A stretch of DNA of 62,291 nucleotides, counting the filler, from Myxococcota bacterium (GTDB lineage: Bacteria; Myxococcota_C; UBA6777), in assembly GCA_023150835.1 (NCBI GenBank). It is 2 parts of 2 records of this genome, joined end to end, with 100 filler letters (N's around TTAATTAATTAA, not from the genome) between each part and the next. Parts side by side here need not be neighbours in the genome. Positions count along the whole stretch, not along the records: positions 31,679 to 62,291 come from JAKLKB010000078.1; 1 more part is not named here. One strand, written 5' to 3'. The translations under genes and the position numbers were made by a program. Shown here piece after piece: positions 27,226 through 62,092 of the stretch. The notes beneath the pieces are model-generated. The model did no database searches, was not told the origin of the DNA, and saw only the letters and a list, made by a program, of their open reading frames with translations. How positions within the stretch are numbered: the first letter of the stretch is position 1; each line of letters opens with the position of its first letter.

Positions 27226-27396
27226 CTGTTTTTTTGCGGGAGGTGGGATCTTGCAGTTTGGCGTGGGTTCGTGTATTGCAACGCGGGAGAGATCGCAGCG
27301 GTTTGACGGATAGCGTGCGAAGAAGTCGGAGCCATCGAGAAGATGGTGGGTATGTGGTTCGTGCGCGAGCGTCATTGTTTTGGAGAGAGCGAGCGG

Positions 27397-27927: not shown

Positions 27928-27950
27928 ATCCGTTCTTTGAGGTCGAAGTG

Positions 27951-28082
27951 GCCGACAAAACCCCCCGCGTTCGCGCCACATCAAGCGGCAGTGTTGTTGT
28001 TTTGAAAAGCGTCTGAACGCCCCGCCAAAACAGGGTCAAGGGAGCCTCGCTAAGGGCGCGGGGTGTGGGGTAGAACCCCACA
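27951..28082 (+). repeat. Family B element, copy 2
   Basis: GCCGACAAAACCCCCCGCGTTCGCG...CAAGCG...TTGAAAA...GGGTCAAGGG...GTGGGGTAGAACCCCAC. Confidence 0.75.
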
Positions 28083-42042: not shown

Positions 42043-42474
42043 AAAATACGCTTTCCCTTGAAGCGGACTCGCTTCCTTGCGATTCGCAGATAGTCGCGGC
42101 TGGCTCTTTTCAAAACCATGAGACAACACAAGCAAAGCCTACACAAAACGCGCAGGCTCAAAAAGGTTATTTGACACGCACTTTTCACGCAAGACCCAAA
42201 AATGCTTGGCGCTTGCCTCTTGCACCGCAACGCAGCGAACAAGCCTCGCTGCTTAGGCACCAAGAAGGCACACGCAACTGGGACGATCGTGGATGATTGT
42301 ACCCATCCGCGCACAAAAGACAAACAAATCTTTCGCTCTACCGACCATCCTTGCGGCGATCTGAGCGGATGGCGCATCCTTGCCTATGATCCAAACCCAA
42401 ACCATCTCGGTAACGCAGGGGACGAATTTGCGGGTGGCGGATGCCATCGCGCAGCCCAAGAATTTTTGAGTCGA

Positions 42475-44325: not shown

Positions 44326-47300
44326 ATGGAACGACGACTCCTTTGGCTGTTTCTTGCAACCGCCTTGACCTTTGTGTTTCTCGGTGGATGCGGGCCGATC
44401 ACGCTAAACCCCAACCAAACGATCTGCACCGCCACCCAAGACTGCCCCGGGCGCTTGCGCTGCCAACAAGGCCGATGTGTCGCTCTCTCCACCGAAACGA
44501 CACCCACCGAGCCTCTCCCTTCCGAAATCAGCGCAGAATCCACCGTCGAGTCCCTGCCTTCCGAACCTCCCTCCGAACCCACTGTCGAATCCCTCACAGA
44601 GCCTTCTCTCGAATCCGTCCCCGAAGATGCTGGCTCTGAGCCTTCTCCAGAACGCCCGCCCGACGCCGTCTGCGAAGACGAAGACAAAGACGGGTACTGC
44701 GCCAATCTACCCAACGACAAAGGCCAATACGACTGCAACGACAAAAACAAACAGATCCATCCCAACGCCCCCGAACAATGCAACGGAGAAGACGACAACT
44801 GCAACGGGCAGATCGACGAAGATCTCACTCCCCCTCCTTGCAGCAAAACCCAAGGCGTCTGCTCAGGGGCAAAAAAAACCTGCAAAGGCAAACAAGGATG
44901 GGCCGATTGCACCGATAGCGATTACCTCGTACACAGCGGAGATTACGAATCAAAAGAAACCACTTGTGATGGCAAAGACAACGACTGCAACGGCCTAATC
45001 GACGATAACGTGTTCTTGCCCACCGCTCCCTGCCAAACTCCCCAAAAGCTCGGCGAATGCGCTCGCGGCCAATATACGGGCTGCAAAGACGGCAAACTGG
45101 TGTGTACATCCAACATCCAACCCCAACCCATCGAGATCTGCGACAACGGCAAAGACGACGATTGCAACGGCAGCGTCGATGAAAATCCCCCTTGCGCCTG
45201 CATAAACGGCAAAAAAGAATCCTGCTACGACGGTCTCATCGGATGCACCCGAAAAAGCGACGGTTCCTACACCTGCATCAGCCCCTGCCAAGCCGGTTCT
45301 CGAGCTTGTCTCAACAGCAGATGGGGAGCCTGCCTTACACAGATCACCCCATCATCCGAGATCTGCAACGGTAAAGACGACGATTGCGACGGCACCATCG
45401 ACAACAACACCACAGACAGCAACAAAGACTGCAACACCTCAAAACCCGGCATCTGCCAAGATGGCCGTACCCAATGCGCCAACGGTACGCTCTCCTGCAC
45501 CTCCATCTTTCAAGCCACCCCCGAAACCTGCAACGGCAAAGACGACGACTGCAACGGAAACATCGACGACAATCCCCAAGAACAAGGCAAAGCCTGCCCT
45601 GCACAAGCCACAGGAGAATGCAAAAACGGCTCCTATCGCTGCGAAGCTGCCCGACTGACCTGTGTCCCCGCCTCGCCAACACCCGAGATCTGCAACGGCA
45701 AAGACGACGATTGCGACGGTAGCATCGACAATACCGAAGGAACAAGCTTGCCGATCGCTCGTTCTTGCTACGGCGGCCCCGCCCAGTCCCTCGGCGTGGG
45801 CCTCTGCATCGACGGCACACAACGTTGCATCAACGGCACATGGGACGCTTGCAATAACGCACAAACTCCCCGCAGCAGCGAGACCTGCGACAATGCCGCT
45901 GACGACAACTGCGATCACTCCCTCACCTACGGATGCAACACCTGTAACCCAAGTCGCGTCAATTTCCCCCTCACCCCTTACGGCGAACACAGCGACGCCA
46001 TCCGCGCCACCGCCCTCAGCCCCAACAATCTGCTTTTTGTCTCCGCTTCCAAAACGGGAGAGATCCGCATCTGGTCGCGCACGGATGGCCTTCTGCTTTC
46101 TTCCCTGCGCGCTCACACCAACGCCATCCAAGACCTCGCCATCAGCAACGACAACACCCTCCTCGCCTCCGCAAGCAGCGATAAATCCGCTGCGATCTGG
46201 ACGCTCTCGACCGCACAACGCCTGCGCACCCTCTCCGGCCACTCAGGAGAAGTCGTGGGGATTCGCTTTATCGACAACGATCAAGCCCTGATCACCGTCT
46301 CCGATGACGGCTACCTCCACCGCTACAACACCGCCGACGGAACACTCCAAAAACGCCTCAAGATCGGCTTTAACGCACGCAGCCTCGCGATATCTCCACA
46401 AACAAACCTGCTCGCTGTCGGTGGAAGCCTCGGAGATATCGCCCTTTTTGACCTCTCCCAACACAAGTTCACCAAACAATGGAAAGCCCACAGCGCTGCC
46501 GTCCTCTCCCTCGCCTTCTCTCCCGACGGCAAAGAACTCGCAAGCGGAAGCAGCGATCGCACCATCTTGATCTGGAACACAGACAACAACCTCGGACAAA
46601 AACTCTACACCCTCAGCGGCCTGCAAGCCGAAGTCTACAGCGTGTTCTACGATCCGCAAAAACGTTTCTTTTTCGCAGGTACCGCAGAAAAACTGGTTCG
46701 TGCGTGGCGTCTCCCTCTCTACACTTACGCTCACGCTTACACCTCGCCCAACGGCGCTGTCACCAGCATCCAAGCCGAAACCACCGGCACAACCCTCTAC
46801 GCTGCCACCGATACGCCTCGCACTTACTCATGGCCGATCGCCTCCCCAACAGCCTCCGCCCGCCCTTTCCCCGCACACAACAGCCACATCACCGCCCTCG
46901 CTCAAAACAACAACATCGGTCTGCTCGCCTCTGGCGATGATCGCGGCACCATCGTTCTTTGGAAACAAGGAACCCTTCTCCGCTCCTCCGCGCTCCTCAG
47001 CAAACACAACGCGACGATCTCACGGCTCGCTTTCACCGCAGACGGAAAAACCCTCGTCTCCACCAGTCGCAACGGCGATATCGTCGTTTGGGAGACCAGC
47101 AACGCCACTCTCAAAACCACCTTTTCGAGCGCTCACCTCGGAAAAGCCGTCTCTGCCCTTTCCATCCAACCCAACAGCCCTTCCCTGTTCGTCTCCGGCG
47201 GCGATGATGGCCGCATCATCGCTTGGGATATCAGCAAAAACAAAGATATCTCGACGCTCGCCCTCCCCAACAGCGATCTCCCCCTTGACCTTCAATTCCA

Positions 47301-47760
47301 AGACGACAACAAAACCATCGCCGTCGGCGCAAGCAGCGGACGCCTCTACATCCTCAGCTTCGATGGCATCAACCTCAAGCTCGAAAGAACCCTCACAGAA
47401 CACCAAAACAGCGTCCTTGCCGTCGCCTTTGGATCTCGCCCTACCATGGGCGCTCCTGTCCTCGCCTCTTCTGATGTCGCAGGACGGATCGTCTTTTGGA
47501 CAACAACCTTATGGAACAAAGTCGGCGACTTTACCAAAGCCAACGCACGCTACAGCCGACTCCAATTCGGAAGCACACCCCAATACCTTTTCGCTCAAAG
47601 CGACGCTTTTCTTACGGTCGATATCTTGGACGTCTCCAACCGCAAGATCACCCAAAGCCTCCGTGTTCCACAAAGCCTACACAGCTTTTTGTGGCACCCT
47701 GAAAGCTTCACCTTGTTCGCAGGCAGCGACGCCATCCTCCACCGATGGACTTGCCCATAA
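44326..47760 (+). CDS. Lipoprotein with Cys/Asp-rich (MopE-related) repeats and a C-terminal WD40 region
   Basis: Lipobox LGGC; 7 E-x-C-(N/D)-..-DD(D/N)C-(N/D)G-x-ID-type motifs; WD40 repeats such as AHSAAVLSLAFSPDGKELASGSSDRTILIW; GGAG upstream. Confidence 0.9.
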   Translation: MERRLLWLFLATALTFVFLGGCGPITLNPNQTICTATQDCPGRLRCQQGRCVALSTETTPTEPLPSEISAESTVESLPSEPPSEPTVESLTEPSLESVPEDAGSEPSPERPPDAVCEDEDKDGYCANLPNDKGQYDCNDKNKQIHPNAPEQCNGEDDNCNGQIDEDLTPPPCSKTQGVCSGAKKTCKGKQGWADCTDSDYLVHSGDYESKETTCDGKDNDCNGLIDDNVFLPTAPCQTPQKLGECARGQYTGCKDGKLVCTSNIQPQPIEICDNGKDDDCNGSVDENPPCACINGKKESCYDGLIGCTRKSDGSYTCISPCQAGSRACLNSRWGACLTQITPSSEICNGKDDDCDGTIDNNTTDSNKDCNTSKPGICQDGRTQCANGTLSCTSIFQATPETCNGKDDDCNGNIDDNPQEQGKACPAQATGECKNGSYRCEAARLTCVPASPTPEICNGKDDDCDGSIDNTEGTSLPIARSCYGGPAQSLGVGLCIDGTQRCINGTWDACNNAQTPRSSETCDNAADDNCDHSLTYGCNTCNPSRVNFPLTPYGEHSDAIRATALSPNNLLFVSASKTGEIRIWSRTDGLLLSSLRAHTNAIQDLAISNDNTLLASASSDKSAAIWTLSTAQRLRTLSGHSGEVVGIRFIDNDQALITVSDDGYLHRYNTADGTLQKRLKIGFNARSLAISPQTNLLAVGGSLGDIALFDLSQHKFTKQWKAHSAAVLSLAFSPDGKELASGSSDRTILIWNTDNNLGQKLYTLSGLQAEVYSVFYDPQKRFFFAGTAEKLVRAWRLPLYTYAHAYTSPNGAVTSIQAETTGTTLYAATDTPRTYSWPIASPTASARPFPAHNSHITALAQNNNIGLLASGDDRGTIVLWKQGTLLRSSALLSKHNATISRLAFTADGKTLVSTSRNGDIVVWETSNATLKTTFSSAHLGKAVSALSIQPNSPSLFVSGGDDGRIIAWDISKNKDISTLALPNSDLPLDLQFQDDNKTIAVGASSGRLYILSFDGINLKLERTLTEHQNSVLAVAFGSRPTMGAPVLASSDVAGRIVFWTTTLWNKVGDFTKANARYSRLQFGSTPQYLFAQSDAFLTVDILDVSNRKITQSLRVPQSLHSFLWHPESFTLFAGSDAILHRWTCP

Positions 47761-47906: not shown

Positions 47907-50210
47907 ATGCACCGTTCCTCACAACAAAACACCCTCTATCGGCTTTTTGGATGGCCTCTACTCGCTCTCTTCCTTGCGATCACCCCCTCCCTCGCTTGTG
48001 ATGGCCTCCCACCCACCGAGACCCTCCATGAACCCTCCGCCGAATCTTCCCAAGAACCCGCTCCCAACGAGCCTTCCACAGAATCCAAGACCGAATCTTC
48101 CCAAGATTCCGCTCCCATCGAACCCTCACAAGAATCCACAACCGAAATCTCACAAGAACCCGCACCATCCGAGCCTTCCACCGCAGAAACCACCACCGAA
48201 CCCGCCCCACCCGACCAAGAACCCGCACCCACCGAGTCGCCTCAAGAATCCACACAAGACGCCACCGCAGAACCCATTGCAGAACCCGACCCCACCGACG
48301 CACAAGAGCCGCTCCCCGAAACCAACACCGAAACCCAACCCGACGGCCTACCCGAAACCCAATCCGACGGCCTACCCGAAACCCAACCCGACGGCCTGCC
48401 TGCACTCCAAGTCAAAGCGATCAGCCTGCGCACTCCGTTGCTCGAAAACTCCGCACAAAGCGGGCTTCTCGAACGATCTGCGGATGGCAAAACGTGGCAT
48501 CGGATCCTCTGGCTCCCCGCTGGCTCGTTCTCTTTTACTTTTCAACTCGACAAGCAAACCGCTCCCGTCGGCATCCTTCAGCAATCCACATGGCCGCTGC
48601 AAGGCTTTCTCCAAACAGCCACCGCCCCGATCCAAACAAACACCCCACAACAAGGCCGTTATCGTATCACCGTCGACACCACAAACGCCTCGTTTCGCAT
48701 CGAAGCCCTCCCCGCCATCACTGCCGCCCGTCTCGTCGGCACATGGAACGCCCAAAGCAACCAGCAGATCGCCCTCGCTCTTGACGCCCAAACGGGCCTA
48801 TTTCAAGCCGATATCTCGATCAAGGCCGGCAATGCCACGTTTTCCCTCGAACTCCAACAACAAGGCGCTTGGCGACGCTATAGCCTTACCCACACACCCT
48901 ACAACGCCTTCCCACAAGGCGGAACCCTCGAAGAAAACACCTCTCCAAGTCTTTCTCTGATCCCACAAGACGACACCTACCGCTTTTCCATCGATCCCAA
49001 AGATCTCCGCTTTGCACTTCACTACACACCCGATGATCCGACTCTTCGCTACCAAGCCCTGCTCCAAGATCTCAGCACCCTCTCCGATCCTGCTCAAAAA
49101 AATGCGCGGATCCTCCCCTTCTTCCGACGCTTAACGGCCCTTCGACAGATCCCCATCGTCAAAGGCCGCGACGTTGTCTTCTTGCTGTGGTGGTCCATGC
49201 AAGCCCCCGCCTCCGTCGCTGGAACCTTCAACCAATGGCAAGCCGGACAACATACTCTCCAACGCATCGCTGGCACCGACTTTTATCACCTCAAACTCAC
49301 CATGACACAAGATTCCCAATACGCCTACAAATTCGTTGACTCCGCAGCCACCCCTCAATGGATCACAGACCCCGTCAATCGGCGATTTGAATACGGCCCT
49401 TTCGGCTCCAACTCCCTCTTCAATACCGACGCCACCACCGACACCAGCACACTCGAACAACACAACGAATTCTCCGCCACCAAGCTCCAAAACAAACGCA
49501 AGCTCATCGTCTACCTCCCCCCCAACTATCGCAGCGCCAAAACCCGCTATCCCGTCTTGTATATGCACGACGGACAAAACCTCTTTGATGATCAAGCGAT
49601 CTGGGGCGGATGGGGCGTCAAAAGCTGGGCCGATCAGATGATCAAAGCTGGACAACTCAAGCCTTTTATCGTCGTCGGGGTCGAAAACACCATCGGCAGA
49701 ATGGACGAATACACCCACACCACCGACAAGATCAGCGGAACCTCTACCGGAGGCAAAGCCAACGACTACGCCGACTTCTTGCTCAAAGATATCAAACCCT
49801 ACATCGACGGGCTTTATCGCACACATCCCGATCACCGCCACACCGCCGTAATGGGCTCTTCGCTTGGTGGCTTGATCTCTCTTTGGCTGGGCGTCCATTA
49901 TCCCCGTACCTTCTTCCGCATCGGTGCCCTCTCTAGCACCTTTGGATGGGGCAAGATCGCAGCAAACAACCCCACCCTCGGCGAGATCTTCCAAAACAAA
50001 GGCTTCCAAAACCTCGTCGTCTACATCGATTCGGGCTCCCCCCAAGACAACTATCAAGTCACCCTCCAGATGCGAGACACCATGCGACAACTCGGCTACC
50101 TCGACGATCTCAACCTACTCCATTACGTCGAACAAAACGCCATCCACAACGAAAAAGCATGGCGTGACCGCCTCCATCGCCCCCTTTCTTTCCTCCTCTC
50201 TTGGCCCTGA
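47907..50210 (+). CDS. Lipoprotein alpha/beta-hydrolase (esterase family) with CBM48-like domain
   Basis: Lipobox SLAC; E/P/S/T linker; VAGTFNQW...YAYKFVD...WITDP.N; YPVLYMHDGQNLF, GSSLGG nucleophile elbow, HNEKAW. Confidence 0.9.
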   Translation: MHRSSQQNTLYRLFGWPLLALFLAITPSLACDGLPPTETLHEPSAESSQEPAPNEPSTESKTESSQDSAPIEPSQESTTEISQEPAPSEPSTAETTTEPAPPDQEPAPTESPQESTQDATAEPIAEPDPTDAQEPLPETNTETQPDGLPETQSDGLPETQPDGLPALQVKAISLRTPLLENSAQSGLLERSADGKTWHRILWLPAGSFSFTFQLDKQTAPVGILQQSTWPLQGFLQTATAPIQTNTPQQGRYRITVDTTNASFRIEALPAITAARLVGTWNAQSNQQIALALDAQTGLFQADISIKAGNATFSLELQQQGAWRRYSLTHTPYNAFPQGGTLEENTSPSLSLIPQDDTYRFSIDPKDLRFALHYTPDDPTLRYQALLQDLSTLSDPAQKNARILPFFRRLTALRQIPIVKGRDVVFLLWWSMQAPASVAGTFNQWQAGQHTLQRIAGTDFYHLKLTMTQDSQYAYKFVDSAATPQWITDPVNRRFEYGPFGSNSLFNTDATTDTSTLEQHNEFSATKLQNKRKLIVYLPPNYRSAKTRYPVLYMHDGQNLFDDQAIWGGWGVKSWADQMIKAGQLKPFIVVGVENTIGRMDEYTHTTDKISGTSTGGKANDYADFLLKDIKPYIDGLYRTHPDHRHTAVMGSSLGGLISLWLGVHYPRTFFRIGALSSTFGWGKIAANNPTLGEIFQNKGFQNLVVYIDSGSPQDNYQVTLQMRDTMRQLGYLDDLNLLHYVEQNAIHNEKAWRDRLHRPLSFLLSWP

Positions 50211-50243
50211 TCGATCCACACGCCCCTCTCTCTCTCTCCCAAC

Positions 50244-52562
50244 CTACTTGCCCACGCTCCTTTTTCGCACACCAAACGACAAGGGCTTTGGCCCGATATC
50301 AAACAGCCTCGTAAACAAAAACAACAAAAACAACAAACCAAACGTCGCCGCCAACCCGATCCCCACAAACGACCGTCTATTCTCCGCGATCCGCTGCTCC
50401 ACGTCCTCCTGCGTTCGCCTCACCACCAACACCGCACGCACCCGATTGCTCTTCGTCAATTGCGACGTACCCGCCCAACCATAACCCACATTCAAAGCCT
50501 TCCCAGTCTCCCCATGACACGCTTGACAGGGCTTTCCATTCGGAACTGGCCAATACACCGTCAACACCTTGTTTTCTCCAAACAACTCCATAAAAGAAAC
50601 CGCCCTCTCCTTTGTCAACGCATCGTTCCAACGATCCTTTTCAACCCGAAAAGCCGTCTTCTTTTGCGCCAACAACCCTTTGTGCGCTTGATCGATATTC
50701 AAAAAACCGATGCGCTTGAGCTCGCTGACTTTGGACAATAGCTTCGGATGCTTCTGCTTGATCCATTCAAGAACCTTCGGATCAGACAAGCGTTTCTCCA
50801 CAAACTGCCGCGTCGAAAGATCCGTGTACGCATACGTCTTGTCCAATCGCACCACTTCGATCGACGCGATGGTCTTGTCTTTTCGGAGCTTTGACACCAA
50901 CTCCCGCACGATATCCGCCCGCCCCTCAACCATATTGGCCCCGATCGCTCGCTGAAGCGTGGCCGCTTGATCCAACGCTGCCTTGCGATCTTGTTCCCGT
51001 AATGCCTGCCCCGTGTTGTGCAGATTGAACACCAACAGCGAACCAAACGCGAACACCATCACCAACAACAAACCCAACACCGACGCAACCCCCGCAAAGA
51101 CCGCACGATTCCGACGCATCAACTTCTGAAATCGCTCTGCACGTGTCAATGGGTGCGCCTTGATCGGCTTTTCCGCAAGATACGCATCGATATCGTCTGC
51201 AAAATCCGCCGCCGACGCATAACGCCGCCCCGCCTCCTTCTCCATCGCTTTCAAACACAAAATGTCCAATTCTTGCGGAATCTTCCGCCCCAAAACACGC
51301 TGCGCCACCTCTGACGGTGCCTCCACCTCGTTCGAGATCACCTGCATCATTAACGAAAACAACGTATCTCCCACAAACGGCACCCGACCCGTCAACAAGT
51401 GAAACATCGTCGCTCCCAACGAATACACATCGCTCAACGGACCCACATACTGCACTTCCCCATTCGCCTGCTCGGGCGACATATAATACGGCGTCCCCAT
51501 CGTCGCTTTGGTCGCCGTCAAATTCAGCCCTTGTTCGCGATCTTTCGCGATCCCAAAATCCATGATGTACGGCTCGCCTTGTTGATCGATCAAGATGTTG
51601 TCTGGTTTGACGTCTCGATGCACAATCCCCCGTCGATGCGCATAATCCAACGCACGACAACACTTGCTCAAGATCTGTAGCCCCCGCCTCATCGCCTCCT
51701 CGCTCTGCTCGTCTATTAGATCTTGAAACGTCTTCCCCTCGATCCAATCCATCACAAAATAAAACGTCCCCGGCTCTTCTCCCGCATCAAACACCGAGAT
51801 GATGTTCGGATGCCGCAGCCTCCCCGCAAGCATCGCCTCATTTTGAAACCGCAAGATCGTTGCTTCGTTGATCTGTTTCCCAACCTTCATCACCTTGATC
51901 GCACAAAAACGACACAGATTCAGCGAATACGCCTTGTAAACCTTCCCCATACCCCCTTCTCCTATCTCCCCAAGCAGATCATAAGCCCCCAAACGACCGA
52001 TCACATCGGTCGAAGAATACGGCAACGCAAATGCTTGCTGCTCATCCCCCTGCAACACACGACGATCTCCCATCGCCGTTGTCAGCACCCCGTCTCGATA
52101 ACGCCGCAACTGCTTTGCGCGTACCGTCTGACTCCCGCCTCTCGCCTTCCCACCTGTCGCACGACCCTCCACAACGCCCACCACCACCGAAACAGCGTTC
52201 TCGCCCGTCGCCTCAAACGCAACGTCTCCACCTTCCAACACCGTCCTTCCCGCCTTCTCCTCATCAAACACCGTCCTTCCCGCCTTCTCCTCATCAAACA
52301 CCGTCCTTCCCGCCTTCTCCTCATCAAACACCGTCCTTCCCGCCTTCTCCTCATCAAACACCGTCCTTCCCCCCGTATCCGCCCCAATGACCGCTTCTTC
52401 GACCTCCCCCACAACAAACACATCCACCGCTGTACGTTCGGGGCGCTCGTCCAACGTATTTGCGAAAAGATCCCATCCACCCACGCTTTTGACACGCCCT
52501 TCCTGATCGCCGATCACCCGTTTCTTGCTCGAACCCTCTTCGCTCTTTTTCTCGCTTGACAT
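50244..52562 (-). CDS. Hanks-type Ser/Thr kinase with a C-terminal 2-TM periplasmic c-type heme (CxxCH) domain
   Basis: GEGGMGKV, CAIK, HRDVKPDN, DFG, GTPYYMSPE; TM1, then PVPNGKPCQACH (CQACH at 50514-50528), then TM2; GGGAGGAG upstream. Confidence 0.9.
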   Translation of the reverse strand: MSSEKKSEEGSSKKRVIGDQEGRVKSVGGWDLFANTLDERPERTAVDVFVVGEVEEAVIGADTGGRTVFDEEKAGRTVFDEEKAGRTVFDEEKAGRTVFDEEKAGRTVLEGGDVAFEATGENAVSVVVGVVEGRATGGKARGGSQTVRAKQLRRYRDGVLTTAMGDRRVLQGDEQQAFALPYSSTDVIGRLGAYDLLGEIGEGGMGKVYKAYSLNLCRFCAIKVMKVGKQINEATILRFQNEAMLAGRLRHPNIISVFDAGEEPGTFYFVMDWIEGKTFQDLIDEQSEEAMRRGLQILSKCCRALDYAHRRGIVHRDVKPDNILIDQQGEPYIMDFGIAKDREQGLNLTATKATMGTPYYMSPEQANGEVQYVGPLSDVYSLGATMFHLLTGRVPFVGDTLFSLMMQVISNEVEAPSEVAQRVLGRKIPQELDILCLKAMEKEAGRRYASAADFADDIDAYLAEKPIKAHPLTRAERFQKLMRRNRAVFAGVASVLGLLLVMVFAFGSLLVFNLHNTGQALREQDRKAALDQAATLQRAIGANMVEGRADIVRELVSKLRKDKTIASIEVVRLDKTYAYTDLSTRQFVEKRLSDPKVLEWIKQKHPKLLSKVSELKRIGFLNIDQAHKGLLAQKKTAFRVEKDRWNDALTKERAVSFMELFGENKVLTVYWPVPNGKPCQACHGETGKALNVGYGWAGTSQLTKSNRVRAVLVVRRTQEDVEQRIAENRRSFVGIGLAATFGLLFLLFLFTRLFDIGPKPLSFGVRKRSVGK
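52237..52371. repeat. Perfect 30-bp in-frame tandem repeat (4.5 copies) in the kinase N-terminus
   Basis: AACACCGTCCTTCCCGCCTTCTCCTCATCA; encodes GRTVFDEEKA on the minus strand. Confidence 0.97.
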
Positions 52563-52767
52563 CACTCGCTCCTCCCAGCACAGGGCTTACGCAGATCGGT
52601 TTGCTTGGCGGGGCTTTCCCTCACACCCCACAAAATCACCTTGACAAATCCCCCCTCTTTTGCCTATCTATTCGCTCGCCTTGCGCCCCTGTTGATGGCG
52701 ATAGTTCTCCATTTTACACAGATTTCAAGGTCTTACACCTTGTTTGCATACCCCAAAGGAGTTTCTC

Positions 52768-53019
52768 ATGAAAGCAGATATCCATCCCAAATACAACCAT
52801 GTGATCTTTACCGACGGCGACTGGGAACTCGTCACCCGCTCCACCATGAAAAGCAACGAAGTCAAAAGCATCAACGGCGTTGATCACTACGTGATCCCCC
52901 TCTCCGTTAGTGCTTATACGCACCCTTTCTGGAACGGTGGTAGCCAACGCTTTGTCGACACCGCAGGTCGCCTTGAGCGCTTCCAACGCAAATACGCCCG
53001 ACCCGCTCGCAAAGCCTAA
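52768..53019 (+). CDS. rpmE: 50S ribosomal protein L31, type B (Cys-free)
   Basis: MKADIHPKY, TRST, THPFW, VDTAGRLERF; no cysteines; AAAGGAG upstream; TTGACA at 52641. Confidence 0.95.
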   Translation: MKADIHPKYNHVIFTDGDWELVTRSTMKSNEVKSINGVDHYVIPLSVSAYTHPFWNGGSQRFVDTAGRLERFQRKYARPARKA

Positions 53020-53024
53020 TCCCT

Positions 53025-53094
53025 CATCGCGTCTCTCCCATCGCGTCTCTCCCATCGCGTCTCTCCCATCGCGTCTCTCCCATCGTGTCTCCCA
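53025..53094. repeat. 14-bp tandem repeat, 5 copies, just after the rpmE stop
   Basis: Unit CATCGCGTCTCTCC; last copy imperfect. Confidence 0.92.
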
Positions 53095-53337
53095 CCCAAA
53101 ACCTCCGTTTCAGCCCCGAAGGGCTTGGGCAACGAGCCGCGTCACCCTCGCCCATCGTTCCTCACCCTTCAACCCCCGTTTTACCGCCGCTCTTCCTCAA
53201 AGCAAAAACTCTATGCTTATTCAATAGATAACAGGCATAATTTTCATCTTTTTTGCGATTGTTTATCGGCTCCTCTATGCTCCAAAACGAAAGGCCCACC
53301 ACAACGGACCCCCGACTCTTGGACAGGAGATCTGCCG

Positions 53338-53652
53338 ATGACACTCGAAGAAATGAAACAAATGGCCTACTGGCACGCCGACGCAGAAACACCCGGCCCT
53401 TTTTGCCCGGGATGCTACTCTCCCTTGCACGGCGATCTTGCTTTCTTTTGGCACAAACAATGTTTCCTTGGCCTTGCTGGACCTGCCCCTCTGCCCACCG
53501 CAACCCCACAAAACCGACGCCGACAACCGCCTGCCCCACCACGCCTCGCCCCACAACATCGCCAACCTCCGCCTTCCTACACCCAACAACCCTCCCAATC
53601 CTTCGAGGCTTTCTCTCGCCCTGTCCTCCGCTGTCATCCCTCTTCTCGTTAA
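53338..53652 (+). CDS. Small hypothetical protein with a C-x2-C-x12-H-x2-C motif and Pro-rich tail
   Basis: AGGAG 8 nt before the ATG at 53338; CPGC...WHKQCF. Confidence 0.5.
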   Translation: MTLEEMKQMAYWHADAETPGPFCPGCYSPLHGDLAFFWHKQCFLGLAGPAPLPTATPQNRRRQPPAPPRLAPQHRQPPPSYTQQPSQSFEAFSRPVLRCHPSSR

Positions 53653-53924
53653 AAACGCCGTCCCTTCTCTCCTCTCAAAAATAACTCCGTTTGTTTGGGC
53701 GCTTGACGAAGCAGCGTCGATCCGTATGCTGACGGGCGTTGGGTGTTGACACAAAGCTTCTCGAAACGGCCCTCCCAACCCCGAAAGACGTACCTCCCAC
53801 AGGTACAAAGACATCCCAAGGAAAGAAACTGGGAGCGGCGTTTCTGTTGTGTCGCCTTCAAAGCGACCGTTCCGAGCATCCCCACCGCGCCCCCAGACCT
53901 CCATCCCAAGCGGAGAGACCCACC

Positions 53925-54680
53925 ATGCACCGCACCAAAGAACAGAAAGACCTTCCATGGCAAGCAGGACGCAACAGCAGCCCCGCTTGTTTGTCTTGCG
54001 ACAAACGCCTTCACAACCAATGGAAAGTCCTTGATGAAGAGCAGCTTCGCGACCTCAACACCGTCAAGTCGTGCAACACCTACCAACCCGGGCAAGTGAT
54101 CTTCTACCAAGGCAACCCATGTATGGGCCTTTATTGCATCGAATCTGGAACGGTTGCTCTGCGCAAGATCGATATACACGGAAACAGCGTCGTGATCAAG
54201 CTTGCCCATGACGGGCAAACCCTCGGCTATCGCGCCTTTTTCTCCAACACAGAGTACTCCGTCTCCGCAGAAGCCGTCACGGCTTGCCGTGTCTGCTTTA
54301 TTCCCCGTGACTTTGTTCGTGATATCTTGCTCAAAAACCTCCAATTCGGCTATGAGTACCTTTCTCGCCTTGCCACCGACCTCGGCGAGTCCGAAGACGA
54401 GAAAATGAAGATGTCCACGCTCCCTGTCCGTACCCGCCTCGCGCATCTTCTGCTTTCCCTCAAAGAACACTACGGACACGTCGATGACGACGGCGTCCTC
54501 ACCATCGAGCTCCCCATCTCCCGCCAAGATATGGCTTCCATGCTCGCCATCCGCCCCGAAACTTTATCTCGAGCGATCCGCGCTCTCGAAAAAGATGAGG
54601 TCGCCCTCTTTGACCGCCAAGCCGCCTCCATCGCTGATCTCGACGCCCTACTCGATGAGATCGAAAATCCCATCCCCTAA
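53925..54680 (+). CDS. Crp/Fnr family transcriptional regulator
   Basis: N-terminal CLSC, cNMP-type barrel (IFYQG, SGTVAL, GQTLGYR), RTRLA, HTH SRQDMASMLAIRPETLSR; immediately upstream of cco. Confidence 0.92.
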   Translation: MHRTKEQKDLPWQAGRNSSPACLSCDKRLHNQWKVLDEEQLRDLNTVKSCNTYQPGQVIFYQGNPCMGLYCIESGTVALRKIDIHGNSVVIKLAHDGQTLGYRAFFSNTEYSVSAEAVTACRVCFIPRDFVRDILLKNLQFGYEYLSRLATDLGESEDEKMKMSTLPVRTRLAHLLLSLKEHYGHVDDDGVLTIELPISRQDMASMLAIRPETLSRAIRALEKDEVALFDRQAASIADLDALLDEIENPIP

Positions 54681-54785
54681 CGCTTGCCACTTCTACCCGA
54701 TGGATTCGCGTCCTCTTTCAAACGCCCACAGTTCGCAACCATACGTGCGGACTTCATCTCGCAAACACAAACACCGAGGAATCCG

Positions 54786-57074
54786 ATGGAACATGTCGCT
54801 GAATCGCAACGGCTCGAAAAGTTTGTTTATGACGACGATATCACACGCAAATTCGTCTTCGCCACAGTCCTTTGGGGAATCGTGGGGATGCTTGTCGGAT
54901 TGATCGTCGCCTTTCAACTCGTCTTGCCGTGGCTCAATCTTGAAATCGAGTGGTTGACCTTTGGCCGCCTGCGTCCCCTTCACACCAACGCCGTGATCTT
55001 TGCTTTTGCCTGCAACGCTGTCTTTGCCGGTATGTACTACTCCAGCCAACGCTTGCTCAAAACCCGTATGTTTAGCGACATGATGAGCCGCATCCACTTC
55101 TGGGGCTGGCAGTTGATCATCGTGATCGCCGCCATCACCCTCCCGCTCGGCATCACCCAATCCAAGGAGTATGCAGAACTTGAGTGGTGGGTCGATCTCC
55201 TGATCACAGCGGTTTGGGTGATCTTTTCCATTAACTTCTTTTTAACCATCCGTATCCGCCGTGAGCGCCATCTCTACGTCGCGATCTGGTTTTACATCGC
55301 TTCGCTGATCGCCGTCGCGATGCTTCATCTCTTCAACAACCTTGTCATCCCCGTCAGTTTGACCAAAAGTTATCCCATCTATTCGGGGGTTCAAGACGCT
55401 TTCATGCAGTGGTGGTACGGACACAACGCCGTCGCTTTTGTCCTCACCACGCCCTTCTTGGGCATGATGTACTACTTTATGCCCAAAGCCGCCGAACGGC
55501 CCGTCTACTCTTACCGCCTTTCGATCCTCCACTTTTGGACGCTGATCTTCCTCTATATCTGGGCGGGCCCCCACCACCTCCATTACACCGCACTCCCGGG
55601 GTGGGCGAGCACCCTTGGGATGGTCTTCTCCATCATGTTGTGGATGCCCTCATGGGGGGGCATGATCAACGGCTTGCTCACCTTGCGCGGCGCATGGCAC
55701 AAAGTCGCCCGTGATCCCGTCCTCAAATTCATGGTCGTCGCCATCACCTTCTACGGCATGTCCACCTTTGAAGGCCCCTTGCTCTCCATCAAGTCCGTCA
55801 ACGCACTCGGCCACTATACCGACTGGATCATCGGTCACGTACACAACGGAACCCTCGGATGGAACGGCTTTTTAGCCTTTGGCATGGTGTACTGGTTGAT
55901 GCCTCGCTTGTTCCAAAACACGATCTGGAAACCCCAATGGGTCGAGCTACACTTCTGGATCGGCACCATCGGCATCTTGCTTTATATCGTTTCGATGTAC
56001 GTCGCAGGCATCACCCAAGGCTTGATGTGGCGCGCTTTTGATCCCAAAACCGGCCTGCTCGCCTACCCCGACTTCGTCGATACTGTCATGAACATCCGTT
56101 ACTTCTACTGGGGCCGCGCTCTCGGCGGAACTCTCTATCTCACAGGCGCTATCCTCTGCGGGATCAACCTCTATATGACGTGGGCCACGCGCACCAAAAA
56201 AGAATATGACGAAGAGATCCAAGAAGCCCCTGCCCTCCAAAACATCCACTTCGGCGAGATGAAAACCCCTTCGCGTCTGCGCGAGCGCGGCGCACACGTC
56301 GCCGATATCGCCTACAAGATCGAAGCCCTGATCCAACTTTATTGGCACCGCAAATGGGAGCGCTTGCCCCTCACCTTGACTGTCATGGTCGTCATCGCCG
56401 TAGGTTCCGCCTCCCTCTTCGAGATCATCCCCACCTTTGCCATCAAGTCCAACGTCCCCAAGATCGCCTCCGTTAAGCCCTATACTCCGCTCGAATTGGC
56501 TGGACGCGATATCTATGTCAGCGAAGGCTGCTACAACTGCCACTCCCAAATGGTTCGCCCCATGCGTGCTGAAACCGAACGCTACAACTTCCCAACCGTC
56601 GACCCCAACGCCTCTTTCGCAAGCCAAAGCTACAGCAAGCCCGGGGAGTTTATCTACGATCATCCCTTCCAATGGGGTTCTCGACGCATCGGACCTGACC
56701 TCCACCGCGAAGGAGGCCGCCGTACCGACGATTGGCACTACAAACACATGATGAACCCTCGCGGTACCCAAGGCGAAGTCCTTGTCGAAAACTCCATCAT
56801 GCCCCCCTATCCGTGGCTTGCGCACAAACCCACCGACTTCTCGATCCTCCCCAAAAAGATCTGGGCCATGCGCTTACTTGGCGTACCTTACACGCTCGAA
56901 CAAGAAAAAACCTCCATCCAACACGCCAAAGCCCAAGCCAAAGAGATCGCCGATCGCATCCGCATGAAGGGCATCCCCGGCAAGCACGAAGACAAACAGA
57001 TCATCGCCCTGATCGCTTATCTCCAACGCCTCGGAACCGACATCCTCAAAGAATATCAAAACAATAGAATGTGA
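54786..57074 (+). CDS. ccoN: cbb3-type cytochrome c oxidase, fused subunits I/II (CcoNO)
   Basis: FGRLRPLHTN, QWWYGHNA, WAGPHHL, GHVH, then CcoO-type GRDIYVSEGCYNCHSQMVRP, WGSRRIGPDL, SIMPPY in a single frame. Confidence 0.97.
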   Translation: MEHVAESQRLEKFVYDDDITRKFVFATVLWGIVGMLVGLIVAFQLVLPWLNLEIEWLTFGRLRPLHTNAVIFAFACNAVFAGMYYSSQRLLKTRMFSDMMSRIHFWGWQLIIVIAAITLPLGITQSKEYAELEWWVDLLITAVWVIFSINFFLTIRIRRERHLYVAIWFYIASLIAVAMLHLFNNLVIPVSLTKSYPIYSGVQDAFMQWWYGHNAVAFVLTTPFLGMMYYFMPKAAERPVYSYRLSILHFWTLIFLYIWAGPHHLHYTALPGWASTLGMVFSIMLWMPSWGGMINGLLTLRGAWHKVARDPVLKFMVVAITFYGMSTFEGPLLSIKSVNALGHYTDWIIGHVHNGTLGWNGFLAFGMVYWLMPRLFQNTIWKPQWVELHFWIGTIGILLYIVSMYVAGITQGLMWRAFDPKTGLLAYPDFVDTVMNIRYFYWGRALGGTLYLTGAILCGINLYMTWATRTKKEYDEEIQEAPALQNIHFGEMKTPSRLRERGAHVADIAYKIEALIQLYWHRKWERLPLTLTVMVVIAVGSASLFEIIPTFAIKSNVPKIASVKPYTPLELAGRDIYVSEGCYNCHSQMVRPMRAETERYNFPTVDPNASFASQSYSKPGEFIYDHPFQWGSRRIGPDLHREGGRRTDDWHYKHMMNPRGTQGEVLVENSIMPPYPWLAHKPTDFSILPKKIWAMRLLGVPYTLEQEKTSIQHAKAQAKEIADRIRMKGIPGKHEDKQIIALIAYLQRLGTDILKEYQNNRM

Positions 57075-57083: not shown

Positions 57084-57317
57084 ATGCGAATCAGCGAGAT
57101 CGTCTCCAATGCCAGCCGCAGCACCTTGTGGGTCGAGATGGCACTTGTCCTGTTTTTTACAGTCTTTGTCGGCGTCATCTTCTATCTTTGGTTCTTGATC
57201 AAGCCCGAAGCGCTCGAACGCGCCGCACAAATGCCCCTTGATGACCTCCACCCCCAAGAGCCGCTCACCCTTCCAAAAGACCCACACGCCGACCACGCAC
57301 ACAAAGGAGAACGTTAA
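57084..57317 (+). CDS. ccoQ: cbb3 oxidase subunit CcoQ
   Basis: Short single-TM protein (FFTVFVGV...AQMPL) between ccoNO and ccoP. Confidence 0.85.
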   Translation: MRISEIVSNASRSTLWVEMALVLFFTVFVGVIFYLWFLIKPEALERAAQMPLDDLHPQEPLTLPKDPHADHAHKGER

Positions 57318-57934
57318 TGCACCACCATTCCACCACGGAGATCGTCGAAGAGTTCACCGAGCCTTCTTACGACAAACTCCTCGATCACGAATACGATGGC
57401 ATCCGCGAATACGATAACCCCTTGCCCGGATGGTGGAAGAATCTCTTCTACCTCTCTATCCTCTTCGCTTTCGGCTACTGGGGGTACTATCACTTCGGTG
57501 GCTCCGCACTCTCCGTCCAACAGATCCACGCCCTCGAAGTCGCCCAAGCCAACGCTGAAATGAAACAGCGACGCGGCAAAGACTTTGAAAAAAATCTCGC
57601 CAACGATTTCCAAAAGATCGTCGGAAACCCCCAATCCATCGCCAAAGGCAAAGAGGCTTATACCAAAAACGGTTGCCTTGCCTGCCATCGCCCCGACGGC
57701 GGCGGACTCATCGGACCCAACCTAACGGATCGCTTCTGGATCTTTGGGCCTCAACCCGTCCAGATCTACAAAGCCATCTCCAACGGTGGTCGCCCCAACA
57801 AAGGCATGGAAGCGTGGGGTAAAAAGATCGCGCCTGACGATATCAAAGCCCTTGTCGCCTACGTCATCAGTTTGCGCGGCACCAACCCACCCAACCCCAA
57901 AAAACCCGAACCCGACGAAACCCCATTCCCCTGA
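57317..57934 (+). CDS. ccoP: cbb3 oxidase subunit CcoP (monoheme form)
   Basis: HEYDGIREYDNPLPGWW, one CLACH, IGPNLTD, GMEAWG. Confidence 0.92.
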   Translation: MHHHSTTEIVEEFTEPSYDKLLDHEYDGIREYDNPLPGWWKNLFYLSILFAFGYWGYYHFGGSALSVQQIHALEVAQANAEMKQRRGKDFEKNLANDFQKIVGNPQSIAKGKEAYTKNGCLACHRPDGGGLIGPNLTDRFWIFGPQPVQIYKAISNGGRPNKGMEAWGKKIAPDDIKALVAYVISLRGTNPPNPKKPEPDETPFP

Positions 57935-58268: not shown

Positions 58269-60128
58269 TCAATAATACCGACAGATGCTGTTCCCTATCG
58301 ACATTATCGCACATTTGGCTGGGGTACTGCCGCGTGTCGGGCAATCCGAGCAGTCCGCATCAGATTTGCATGACACAAGCTGGACAAAGGCGCTTTCACA
58401 AGAAGTGCTCCCCCCTTTACAAGCCGTGTTCCCCTGCGCGCAAACGGTGGCGGATCCTTGCGTCGTGATCGTATAGCAAACGGTGGAAGGTACGTTGTCG
58501 TCGATGGTTCCGTTGCAATCATCGTCTAGGTTGTTGCACTGCTCGACTTGAGGGGGGACTTCGCCCAGACAATCCCCCCAACCTTTGCCGTTTGCATGGC
58601 AGGTTTGTGTTCCTGCTTTGCATATCCCCGTGCATTTGTAGCTGTTTGTGGTGGTCGATGGGAAGCAGCCTGTGCTGTAGTTGTAGCAGGCTTGCGTGGT
58701 GTTGGGGATACAGACGCATCCCGAGGCGTCATCCACGCTTCCGTTGCAATCGTTGTCTTTGCCGTCACACTTGGTTTCTTTGGTTTCGTAGTCGGGGTTG
58801 GCCGCGTAGTCGCAGACCCACCCGCCGTTTTGACAGGTTTGTCGTGTACCGCTGCATACGCCGCTTTGTTTGCTGCACAAAACAGGCGTGAGGTTGTTGT
58901 CGATCTGCCCGTCGCAATCGTCATCGATCCCGTTGCACTCTTCGGCCTTGTTCGTGACGGCTCCGATACAAGCGGTCCATTGGCCGTTTTGGCAGGTCTG
59001 CGTTCCCGTTTTGCAGGGAAGCGTGCAGTTGTAGCTGCTTCCGCTTTGGGGGCAGCCTTGTGTTCCGGGATAACAGGTTTGGGTCGCTCCGTGTGTGCAA
59101 ATGCAAGCGCTGTGTTCGTCCGTCTTGTCGTTGCAATCGTTGTCTTTGCCGTCGCATTTGGTTTCGACAGCTTCGTAGTCGGGGTTGGCTGCGTAGTCTG
59201 CGGCTGTGCAATCGACCCATGCTCCTTTCACGCAGGTTTGCTTGGAGCCGTTGCAGACGCCTTTTTGGTTGCTACAGGGTTTGGAGGGGAGGTTGTTGTC
59301 GACGGCACCGTCGCAGTCGTCGTCTTTTCCGTTGCAGTCTTCAGGGGTAGGAACTTGTGCATCGCAGTTCCCCCATGTACCGTTGCTACACGTTTCTTTT
59401 CCGACGCCGCATTTGGATGAACAGGGGCGAGTGACGCCATCGTCGGTGGTACCGTCACAATCGTCGTCTTTGTTGTTGCATTCTTCGATCTTCTCGACGA
59501 CTTGCCCTTGGCATGGGCCCCAAACCCCATTGTCGCAAGTTTGTGTTCCTTCTTTGCATTCCCCCTTGCCTTGTGTTCCTGATGTTCCCGAATAACAAGG
59601 CCGCGTTTCTTTGTTTTGGCACTGGAGATCGGGCTTTGGCTCAGGTGCGGGTTCGGGTATCGGCTCCGAAGTGGTTTCGGGCGAGTCCTCACTTGCATCC
59701 GCCTTTTCGTCGGTGGGTTCGGTGTTGACCGATTCTTGGGGATTTTCGACGGAGGGTTCGGTGTTGACCGATTCTTGGGGATTTTCGACGGAGGGTTCGG
59801 TGTTGACGGACTCTTGGGGGTTTTCGTTAGAGGATTCGGTGTTGACGGACTCTTGGGGGGGTTCGTTAGAGGGTTCGGTATTGGCGGACTCTTGGGACTT
59901 TTCGTTAGAGGGTTCGGTATTGGCGGACTCTTGGGACTTTTCGTCAGAGGGTTCGGTGGAAGAAGTGGTGGAGCCGCAGAGTCCTTGATTGCAATCGAGT
60001 CCTCCGCAGTCCACGCTCGTTTGGCAAGGTTTCAGATGTGGCGAAAGCGAGGGGACTTGGCAGGCCAAGCCAAAGCACATGAGCGCAGAGAGCCATATCC
60101 ATCCAAGGTATCGAGATATCCGCGTCAT
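58269..60128 (-). CDS. Cys/Asp-rich (MopE-related repeat) lipoprotein
   Basis: AAGGAG then ATG at 60128; lipobox GLAC; six C-(N/D)-x2-D-(D/N)-D-C motifs. Confidence 0.88.
   Translation of the reverse strand: MTRISRYLGWIWLSALMCFGLACQVPSLSPHLKPCQTSVDCGGLDCNQGLCGSTTSSTEPSDEKSQESANTEPSNEKSQESANTEPSNEPPQESVNTESSNENPQESVNTEPSVENPQESVNTEPSVENPQESVNTEPTDEKADASEDSPETTSEPIPEPAPEPKPDLQCQNKETRPCYSGTSGTQGKGECKEGTQTCDNGVWGPCQGQVVEKIEECNNKDDDCDGTTDDGVTRPCSSKCGVGKETCSNGTWGNCDAQVPTPEDCNGKDDDCDGAVDNNLPSKPCSNQKGVCNGSKQTCVKGAWVDCTAADYAANPDYEAVETKCDGKDNDCNDKTDEHSACICTHGATQTCYPGTQGCPQSGSSYNCTLPCKTGTQTCQNGQWTACIGAVTNKAEECNGIDDDCDGQIDNNLTPVLCSKQSGVCSGTRQTCQNGGWVCDYAANPDYETKETKCDGKDNDCNGSVDDASGCVCIPNTTQACYNYSTGCFPSTTTNSYKCTGICKAGTQTCHANGKGWGDCLGEVPPQVEQCNNLDDDCNGTIDDNVPSTVCYTITTQGSATVCAQGNTACKGGSTSCESAFVQLVSCKSDADCSDCPTRGSTPAKCAIMSIGNSICRYY
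59705..59957. repeat. 39-bp in-frame tandem repeat (~6.5 copies) encoding a TEPSxExxQESxN linker
   Basis: Read directly from the translation and DNA. Confidence 0.9.
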
Positions 60129-60217
60129 TGAACACTCCTTGCGTAAAGAAAGAAGCCTCAAGGGGGGGTGAGGCGAAAGTATGGGGAAGATGTCTTTTCT
60201 CGCTCGTAAGCCCAGCG

Positions 60218-61915: not shown

Positions 61916-61956
61916 GACGAGAACCTCGAAAAGTGAATGGATATGTACAGGCGTCA

Positions 61957-62092
61957 CGCGGTTGCCAAAAAACCCCGTGTTCGCGGTATTTCAAGCGACA
62001 GAGTCGTTTGTGTGAAAGATCTGTGCTCTTTTCGCCAACATGGGGTCAAGGGGGCTGTGCTAAGGGTGCGGGGTATGGGGCAGCGCCCCATA
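61957..62092 (+). repeat. Family B element, copy 4
   Basis: Matches 161-290 and the reverse complement of 31187-31320. Confidence 0.8.

Follow-up and report, generated by a model that had tools for sequence, protein, structure and literature searches.

The window analysed here, a stretch of 62,291 nucleotides joined from two parts of a Myxococcota bacterium genome (assembly GCA_023150835.1), encodes on its minus strand, between positions 50244 and 52562, a 772-residue protein (P0001) in which a Hanks-type Ser/Thr kinase is joined to a predicted periplasmic domain carrying one heme c attachment motif. From its N-terminus, P0001 consists of a disordered region, the kinase (residues 194-447), a first transmembrane (TM) segment, a 216-residue domain, a second TM segment and a tail of 21 residues (Table 1). 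The open reading frame (ORF) ends with a stop codon at 50244-50246; the ORF call, 50244..52565, gives 773 residues with a GTG start one codon upstream of the ATG at 52562. A relative that is 91% identical, P0002, starts with the same residues as the ATG-initiated protein, and residue numbers throughout refer to the 772-residue form. An earlier reading of the DNA, which we call the original prediction, had described an intact Hanks kinase followed by TM1, a single CQACH, a Met within AIGANMVEG, TM2 and a short tail, and the Pkinase score, the two hydrophobic segments and the one CxxCH reported below bear this layout out.

A hydropathy scan found exactly two hydrophobic segments in P0001, which we placed at residues 487-514 and 731-751. 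The 15 residues before TM1 on the kinase side hold six K/R and one D/E, as do the 21 residues of the tail, and the periplasmic-side flanks of the two segments have K/R against D/E counts of 3/2 and 4/4. Because these charges follow the positive-inside pattern, the region from 515 to 730 is predicted to face the periplasm, with kinase and tail in the cytoplasm and the sensor domain extracytoplasmic. The original prediction of an extracytoplasmic domain between two TM segments thus stands as to its placement, although the domain measures 216 residues rather than the roughly 230 proposed and the strand had been left unstated.

Relatives were sought with an exhaustive phmmer search of the 288-residue C-terminal piece of P0001 against 1.84 billion cluster representatives, which returned 92 proteins at E ≤ 1e-3, a number that falls to 39 at 1e-10 and to 26 at 1e-30. 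In all 39 of the closest representatives (E ≤ 1e-10) the matched part is C-terminal, and a search for the combination of Pkinase and CxxCH sensor, as had been suggested, found Pkinase N-terminal to the sensor in 26 of them. The remaining 13 have no Pkinase match and are 104-510 residues long; three of them, P0017, P0021 and P0031, begin inside the last helices of the kinase C-lobe and are therefore truncated gene calls. Another of the 13, P0032 (510 residues), carries the TM-sensor-TM module after about 236 low-complexity residues and has no kinase domain. The other 53 matches (P0046 downwards), which we term classical relatives, have the sensor match in their N-terminal part; PF21563 is found in 30 of them at E ≤ 1e-4, HAMP in 29 and Pkinase in none. 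Their outputs are HisKA/HATPase_c, MCPsignal, Guanylate_cyc or GGDEF/EAL, and HAMP, where present, follows TM2. The position of the output N-terminal to TM1, which had been singled out as unusual, is therefore just that when set against these 53 proteins.

Within P0001 there is one CxxCH, the CQACH at 679-683, which lies in WPVPNGKPCQACH and is preceded by WPVPNGKP; the number expected by chance from the composition of the protein is 0.0007. Conservation of this motif among homologs had been named as a check. It is present in 42 of 45 family proteins, and the three without it (P0026, P0043 and P0045) are fragments that end short of the site or do not cover it. For residue-level comparisons we used a kinase-linked set of 34 modules, namely P0001-P0045 without the fragments P0011, P0025, P0026, P0037, P0038 and P0040-P0045. 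Ten residues are invariant in all 34: C679, C682, H683, M544, R548, R553, R572, A578, D581 and P672. Heme c is very likely attached covalently to the P0001 sensor, with thioethers at C679 and C682 and H683 as the proximal ligand, as judged from the motif and its conservation.

Assignment of the sensor to a known family required profiles, since matches of the single sequence are weak. Against P0001 alone, PF21563 (Mcp40H-20_sensor) gives E 0.0064 and 17.2 bits (cut-off 27), PF11845 (Tll0287-like) gives E 0.057 and 14.3 bits (cut-off 24.1), and the chain 3b42_A of the Geobacter sulfurreducens chemoreceptor GSU0935 is matched at E 0.13, with PVPNGKPCQACH aligned to PFPNEQRCQSCH. At E ≤ 0.1, PF21563 matches 9 and PF11845 8 of 11 sensor-only relatives, and two relatives pass the Pfam cut-offs, P0031 at 27.7 bits against 27 and P0044 at 26.6 against 24.1. 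The 11-sequence sensor-only profile (A3) matches GSU0935 (3b42) at E 1.2e-5 and the related chemoreceptor GSU0582 (3b47) at E 0.0016. When the 34 kinase-linked modules were compared by hhalign with 23 HAMP-linked modules (a classical set made of the first 235 residues of hand-picked PF21563-bearing matches among the 53), the two aligned over 216 columns, from TM1 to TM2, with a probability of 100% and E 6.2e-42. In a protein-atlas search, which we treat as a source of leads only, the nearest clusters hold PF11845 in 13% and PF21563 in 22% of their members.

Structure prediction points the same way. An AlphaFold2 (AF2) model of the 288-residue piece, built from a 36-row alignment, reached a predicted local distance difference test (pLDDT) value of 89.7 and a predicted TM-score (pTM) of 0.83. 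Its fold runs through a long helix, strands, helices, two strands (171-177 and 180-190 of the piece), a short helix bearing CQACH (193-199), a further strand (224-233) and a long C-terminal helix. Foldseek ranks 3b42_B (E 1.3e-5) and 3b42_A (E 1.4e-4) first, ahead of the Cache domains of WalK, KinD and PctC and of 3b47. The HMM and structure comparison with DUF3365/Tll0287 and GSU0582/GSU0935 that had been recommended thus yielded profile homology and 3b42 as the top structural match. Together with the invariance of the motif across the 34 modules, this upholds the original assignment to TM-(monoheme c, PAS/Cache-like)-TM modules of the GSU0582/GSU0935/DUF3365 kind; by profile, fold and motif the sensor is placed in the sCache_heme / PF21563 family despite the sub-cut-off Pfam scores of P0001 itself.

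The comparison also bears on the second axial ligand. M544 lies in the AIGANMVEG segment, and hhalign aligns its NM[LV]xGRAD motif with the conserved Ml-GraD motif of classical sensors. In GSU0935, heme is bound by Cys140 and Cys143, its axial ligands are His144 and Met60, and Met60 is bound to the heme when it is reduced and displaced by NO or CO (PMC8396549). Since M544 is invariant, is paired by hhalign with the classical motif and has a counterpart of this kind in GSU0935, it is a good candidate for, and probably is, the distal heme ligand. Other features are likewise shared with the two Geobacter chemoreceptors (3b42 and 3b47, PF21563), which are the best profile and fold matches: a periplasmic position between two TM segments, one CxxCH on a short helix after a P-x-P-N strand, a Met in the N-terminal helix and a dimeric state, which for P0001 is predicted. 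The P0001 sensor is longer, 216 residues against 134-135 in the Geobacter chains, with extra helices around 582-651. In the chemoreceptors the output, HAMP plus the signalling domain of a methyl-accepting chemotaxis protein (MCP), comes after TM2, whereas in P0001 the kinase precedes TM1 and 21 residues remain past TM2. The wider sCache_heme family (DUF3365/Tll0287-like, PF11845; PMC12889525) has in common with P0001 the Cache fold, a helical insertion with CxxCH, an extracytoplasmic location and a fused signalling output; the outputs given there are histidine kinases, MCPs, cyclases and GGDEF/EAL, and that of P0001 is a Hanks kinase.

The kinase part is matched by Pfam Pkinase with 166.4 bits against a cut-off of 31.7, and its best PDB match is Mycobacterium tuberculosis PknB (1mru_A, E 1.3e-52). 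An alignment of 25 full-length relatives, which leaves out P0009, P0003, P0035 and fragments, shows G201, G203, G206, K223, H315, R316, D317, K319, N322, D335, F336, G337, P363 and E364 to be invariant; judged by its residues, the P0001 kinase carries all catalytic motifs (Gly loop, Lys, HRD..N, DFG, PE) and is intact. Its activation loop contains threonines at 349, 351, 354 and 357. The AF2 model of the full-length protein (25-row alignment) has a mean pLDDT of 72.9, with the kinase at high confidence. Among the 25 relatives the structured extension preceding the kinase has conserved YxDGV and LPYxS motifs, in which L180 and P181 are nearly invariant, and in the juxtamembrane segment P466, A469, P471, R484 and R486 are conserved. 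A tandem repeat in the disordered N-terminus encodes four identical copies of GRTVFDEEKA (residues about 65-109); the copies in P0002 are fewer and diverged, so the expansion in P0001 looks recent.

The PASTA kinases PknB/Stk1 resemble P0001 in their order of parts, in which a cytoplasmic Hanks kinase at the N-terminus is followed by a juxtamembrane segment, a TM helix and a sensor outside the cytoplasm, and the catalytic domain is 1mru-like. Identity as a PASTA-type PknB was nevertheless rejected: Pfam finds no PASTA, and NF033483, the model for these kinases, gives 300.1 bits against a cut-off of 450 in a match limited to model positions 9-286 of 563, that is, to the kinase part alone. P0001 differs from these kinases in lacking PASTA repeats and in having a cytoplasmic tail after a second TM helix; its sensor would be cofactor-based where the PASTA sensor binds muropeptides.

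Little of the chain follows TM2. Pfam gives no HAMP match in P0001 even at E ≤ 10, and only 21 residues follow the membrane segment; the possibility that the tail is a HAMP remnant was rejected on the same result. A loose pattern for the tail motif [FL][GD][IL]...[FY]G matched the tails of 26 of the 34 relatives, some of them out of register, and missed the P0001 tail itself, FDIGPKPLSFG, which fits the motif by eye. F270 and G271 of the 288-residue piece, both in the tail, are nearly invariant in profile A3.

Table 1 Features of the receptor kinase gene and of the genes around it, in positions along the window
Feature	Position	Strand	Evidence or remark
Whole receptor Ser/Thr kinase gene	50244..52562	-	ORF, 772 aa
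N-terminal region, residues 1-149, predicted disordered	52116..52562	-	AF2 pLDDT <50 at 2-149; no Pfam match
30-bp perfect tandem repeat, 4.5 copies, in frame	52237..52371	-	Tandem Repeats Finder (TRF), 100% matches, score 270
Structured N-terminal extension of the kinase, residues 150-193	51984..52115	-	pLDDT 67-92; strands 152-154 and 160-162
Hanks-type Ser/Thr kinase domain, residues 194-447	51222..51983	-	Pfam Pkinase, E 1.1e-48
Juxtamembrane segment, residues 448-486	51105..51221	-	AF2 helix 474-484; basic RRNR directly before TM1
TM1, residues 487-514	51021..51104	-	Hydropathy; AF2 single helix 486-545 including periplasmic stalk
Predicted periplasmic single-Cache heme-c sensor (sCache_heme / Mcp40H-20_sensor / Tll0287-like), residues 515-730	50373..51020	-	Profiles, AF2, Foldseek
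Met544 codon, candidate distal heme ligand on stalk helix	50931..50933	-	NM[LV]xGRAD motif, invariant 34/34
Putative heme c attachment motif C679-Q-A-C682-H683 with proximal His	50514..50528	-	Single CxxCH, on short helix between strands (AF2)
TM2, residues 731-751	50310..50372	-	Hydropathy; AF2 helix 719-753 ends in TM2
Basic cytoplasmic tail, residues 752-772, no HAMP domain	50247..50309	-	Conserved [FL][GD][IL]...[FY]G motif
Esterase/CBM48 gene	47907..50210	+	Converges with kinase gene
rpmE, ribosomal protein L31	52768..53019	+	Pfam Ribosomal_L31, E 1e-19; divergent from kinase gene; context only
ORF, 104 aa, no family	53338..53652		Between rpmE and Crp/Fnr gene
Crp/Fnr-family regulator	53925..54680	+	cNMP_binding and HTH_Crp_2; 4 bp upstream of ccoNO; context only
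ccoNO, fused cbb3 oxidase subunits I/II	54684..57074	+	NF011053, 1169.5 bits against 1080; Pfam COX1 and FixO
ccoP	57317..57934		Downstream of ccoNO

A maximum-likelihood tree of the 34 kinase-linked and 23 classical modules contains one long branch, with 100/100 support, that splits the two sets. This topology is compatible with a single origin of the kinase-sensor fusion, though the tree is unrooted and is no proof of it. P0032 is nested within the kinase-linked group on a long branch. The sensor was also sought, by tblastn with residues 515-735 and by hmmsearch with the 34-sequence sensor profile, at 79 loci of other Ser/Thr kinases, the best of them mostly from metagenome-assembled genomes of Planctomycetota; it was found at none of these 79, which had been picked by a genome scan on the generic kinase motifs HRD[VI]KPDN and YM[SA]PEQ. 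The origin of the best loci, together with that of the nine planctomycete database proteins described below, would make a planctomycete the probable source of P0001, although the assembly is filed under Myxococcota.

When two copies of the 288-residue piece were modelled together with heme, a symmetric dimer was predicted with a score of 0.60, against 0.01 for the best of three controls. In calibration, 20 of 30 proteins solved as one-chain pairs passed the mark, compared with 1 of 23 known as single chains, counts that hold only roughly here because a custom alignment was used and heme was included. Contact agreement among the runs was at least 82% and the pLDDT of the partner at least 74, and the interface is formed by TM1 with the stalk helix (piece residues 6-84) and by the C-terminal helix with TM2 (236-270). 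P0001 is accordingly predicted to be a homodimer, and since dimers of Cache domains and of GSU0935 have already been solved, the result may reflect likeness to them.

One explanation that would join these observations is that P0001 is a homodimeric receptor Ser/Thr kinase, whose cytoplasmic Hanks kinase is connected through the juxtamembrane helix and TM1 to a periplasmic single-Cache heme c domain. A change at the heme iron, most likely the binding of NO (possibly CO) to ferrous heme and otherwise oxidation of the iron, would displace M544. The stalk helix that bears M544 appears to run straight into TM1 and to form the dimer axis, so a ligand switch would shift TM1 against TM2; this shift in a four-helix membrane bundle would pass to the juxtamembrane helix, whose movement would alter the geometry of the kinase dimer and autophosphorylation of the activation loop, and phosphorylation of substrates would follow. 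On the strength of the sequence comparisons, the models and the analogy with known sensors, we consider with moderate confidence that a heme-based sensor controls the kinase. Within that reading, NO or another gas as the signal is a tentative proposal, and redox state as the signal is a rather less likely one.

NO is the first choice because sCache_heme domains of the signalling type behave as NO sensors and because NO outdid redox in the one receptor-kinase pair tested. The hemes of GSU0582 and GSU0935 undergo a switch between high and low spin mediated by Met60 and bind NO and CO (PMC8396549, PMC3460858), and sCache_heme domains fused to signalling modules are reported to be sensors of NO and not of O2 (PMC12889525). 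In the receptor-kinase pair, from Pseudomonas azotoformans, a Cache_heme-HAMP receptor with NO bound raised phosphorylation by its bound Ser/Thr kinase (bioRxiv 10.64898/2026.05.25.727664). By analogy, this pair of receptor and separate kinase is the closest functional counterpart of P0001. The system (CHH) shares with P0001 a change in phosphorylation caused by NO at a heme, which for P0001 is a proposal; it consists of two proteins, a receptor that ends in HAMP and a soluble kinase, encoded in the same operon, that docks through two C-terminal helical bundles. P0001, in contrast, is one polypeptide with no HAMP and no helical-bundle module, in which a 39-residue juxtamembrane segment leads from the kinase to TM1, and on these grounds membership in the CHH two-protein system was rejected. 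With the kinase directly before TM1 and no HAMP, the signal would have to exit through TM1.

Several points weigh against control of the kinase by a heme sensor. P0001 itself falls below the gathering cut-offs of both PF21563 and PF11845, and the profile alignments to PDB chains are confined to profile positions 142-201, in the C-terminal half of the domain. The Foldseek TM-scores to 3b42 are low, 0.25 when normalised by the query and 0.51 by the target, with a root mean square deviation of 13 A; 3b42 crystallised as domain-swapped dimers, and TM helices form part of the query. The AF2 models were built without heme, and the loop past CQACH is uncertain, with pLDDT below 50 at 688-704. The equivalence of M544 and Met60 comes from the hhalign alignment to unsolved classical sensors and from invariance, not from structure. 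Roughly one in two sCache_heme domains occurs as a stand-alone protein, to which a redox rather than a sensory role is ascribed (PMC12889525), and no classical signalling element such as HAMP links sensor and kinase here. Among the window ORFs scanned with Pfam we found no phosphatase, FHA protein or obvious substrate gene. The signal is ambiguous, given that the Geobacter work favours redox and the Pseudomonas work favours NO, with redox alone less effective. Finally, heme attachment, the ligand role of M544, the nature of the signal, the regulation of the kinase and its direction, and the substrates are all inferred.

One may postulate, as the strongest alternative, that P0001 senses redox potential: Met544 would coordinate the ferrous heme and let go of the ferric one, and oxidation or reduction, not a diatomic ligand, would switch the kinase, so that the heme would report the redox state of the periplasm or of the respiratory chain. 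GSU0582 and GSU0935 are high-spin when oxidised and low-spin, through Met60, when reduced, have midpoints of -156 and -251 mV, and have been proposed to be redox sensors (PMC8396549). The invariance of M544 in all 34 modules would also fit, as would the respiratory oxidase and tetraheme cytochrome encoded in the window. In the one Cache_heme receptor that has been assayed together with a Ser/Thr kinase, however, phosphorylation changed less with the redox state of the heme alone than with NO (bioRxiv 10.64898/2026.05.25.727664), and signalling-type sCache_heme domains have spectra and kinetics like those of NO sensors (PMC12889525). Both of these results come from outside the P0001 family. We regard redox sensing as somewhat unlikely; it stays a serious rival because the Geobacter work supports it.

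A second alternative, which we think improbable, is that the periplasmic domain is no heme switch at all: the CxxCH would be a thiol/disulfide or metal site, or the heme would be structural or electron-carrying, and the kinase would be regulated in some other way. The sub-cut-off scores of the single sequence would be in keeping with this, as would the redox role ascribed to stand-alone sCache_heme proteins (PMC12889525) and the non-kinase N-terminus of P0032, which indicates that the module can exist without a kinase. A thiol/disulfide switch would not need the His of the motif, however, and this His is as invariant as the two Cys (34/34). The TM1-sensor-TM2 unit is moreover a homologue of the input modules of histidine kinases, chemoreceptors, cyclases and GGDEF/EAL proteins, its solved relatives bind heme c, and in P0001 the fusion is continuous through the predicted TM1-stalk helix 486-545 that follows juxtamembrane helix 474-484.

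The original prediction had drawn attention to the proximity of the Crp/Fnr and cbb3 genes. The distance from the kinase start codon to the start of the Crp/Fnr-family gene is indeed 1.36 kb, with ccoNO and ccoP beyond. The kinase gene, however, is monocistronic and lies on the opposite strand to the Crp/Fnr-cco genes, diverging from rpmE and converging with the esterase gene, and rpmE, which the original prediction does not mention, and a 104-residue ORF intervene; because of the strand and the intervening rpmE, co-transcription with Crp/Fnr-ccoNOP is excluded. The Crp/Fnr-family gene scores far below the cut-offs of the NCBIfam FnrL, FixK and Fnr models. That the kinase belongs to an O2 or respiration circuit with these genes, sensing periplasmic O2 or NO and controlling cbb3 expression or Crp/Fnr by phosphorylation, is a doubtful proposition: it is in line with the spacing of the genes and the close coupling of the regulator to ccoNO and ccoP, and it is opposed by the stand-alone position of the kinase gene and by the finding that sCache_heme domains undergo autoxidation and form no stable complex with O2 (PMC12889525; bioRxiv 10.64898/2026.05.25.727664). 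The link is one of proximity only and is weak. Likewise far from likely is the fuller conjecture that a heme-c-gated Hanks kinase signals 'backwards' through its Met stalk helix and TM1 and, in planctomycetes, couples periplasmic NO or redox, through Ser/Thr phosphorylation, to the control of adjacent Crp/Fnr-cbb3 genes; if true, such a kinase would let a single protein stand in for two-component or FNR-type systems in governing respiration.

Other searches of the locus gave little. Rfam returned nothing over 49500-55000 at E ≤ 0.1 and, over the whole window at gathering scores, two tRNAs and nothing else; these are tRNA-Ala(GGC) and tRNA-Val(GAC), at 26511-26584 and 27109-27183 on the minus strand. 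Between 49900 and 54000, a scan for promoters and terminators gave no signal above chance (promoter-like sites: 2, with 1.5 expected; terminator-like sites: 1, with 3.9 expected), and a six-frame hmmsearch of the window turned up no further copy of the sensor. A second Ser/Thr kinase gene lies 8 kb away at 38905-42135 on the minus strand (1076 residues, Pkinase at 45-311) and has no copy of the heme sensor. At 27343-27927 on the plus strand an ORF of 194 residues with four CxxCH matches Cytochrome_C554, c3 and c7 models and probably encodes a tetraheme cytochrome c; it overlaps a longer ORF of no family on the opposite strand, 27148-27984. Since the window holds ccoNO, ccoP and this ORF, the organism makes, and so matures, c-type cytochromes. 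A 14-bp tandem repeat, CATCGCGTCTCTCC, occupies 53025-53091 with 4.8 copies and 98% matches, starting 6 bp past the rpmE stop. Three large proteins with MopE-type putative copper-binding motifs flank the kinase-cbb3 region (44326-47760 on the plus strand, 58269-60161 and 60218-61957 on the minus strand), one of them with WD40 propellers, and a giant ORF of 4781 residues runs from 11723 to 26068 on the minus strand.

As to precedent, the original prediction knew of no characterised example. Full-text literature yielded no account of a protein that fuses a heme-c sensor to a Ser/Thr kinase; the search did not extend to the supplements of bioRxiv 10.64898/2026.05.25.727664, which may list more. 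The words 'threonine', 'Pkinase' and 'Planctomyc' are absent from the main text of both versions of the sCache_heme preprint (PMC12889525 and the later 10.64898/2026.02.01.703092), and in the later version a Ser/Thr kinase appears only as a separate partner. The architecture itself, however, is already listed: supplement file 9 of PMC12889525, the InterPro PF11845 set of more than 5,000 sequences, holds 11 entries named protein kinases, nine of them planctomycete proteins of 615-761 residues with PF11845 near the C-terminus. For the Uabimicrobium and Aeoliella entries the planctomycete phylum was checked by look-up. The Gimesia, Mariniblastus, Frigoriglobus, Singulisphaera and Gemmata entries we take to be planctomycetes as well. 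Kinship of the listed entries with P0001 is inferred from their length and layout. The other two of the 11, 'Protein kinase domain-containing protein' entries of Desulfobulbaceae (rows 2743 and 2825 of the same file), are 557-562 residues long with PF11845 at 43-209, the opposite order. The claim of novelty therefore holds in part: the fusion is uncharacterised, yet it was already listed without comment, and with the non-covalent CHH pair, described in 2026, a link between Cache_heme domains and Ser/Thr kinases is in print.

Both parts of P0001 are well known, and it is their joining that is new to study. Every heme-c Cache sensor described has its output after TM2, usually by way of HAMP, whereas the P0001 family has its kinase before TM1 and almost nothing after TM2. 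If the kinase responds to heme, it follows that the N-terminal helix and TM1 can carry the signal of a Cache sensor, and that a cofactor in the periplasm can directly gate a Hanks kinase in bacteria. The fusion would also serve as an independent 'Rosetta stone' for the partnership, reported in 2026, of a Ser/Thr kinase with a Cache_heme receptor that is a separate protein. With 39 cluster representatives among 1.84 billion at E ≤ 1e-10, the family seems small; its presence in cultured planctomycetes (Gimesia, Gemmata, Singulisphaera and Mariniblastus; PMC12889525 supplement) makes these possibilities testable.

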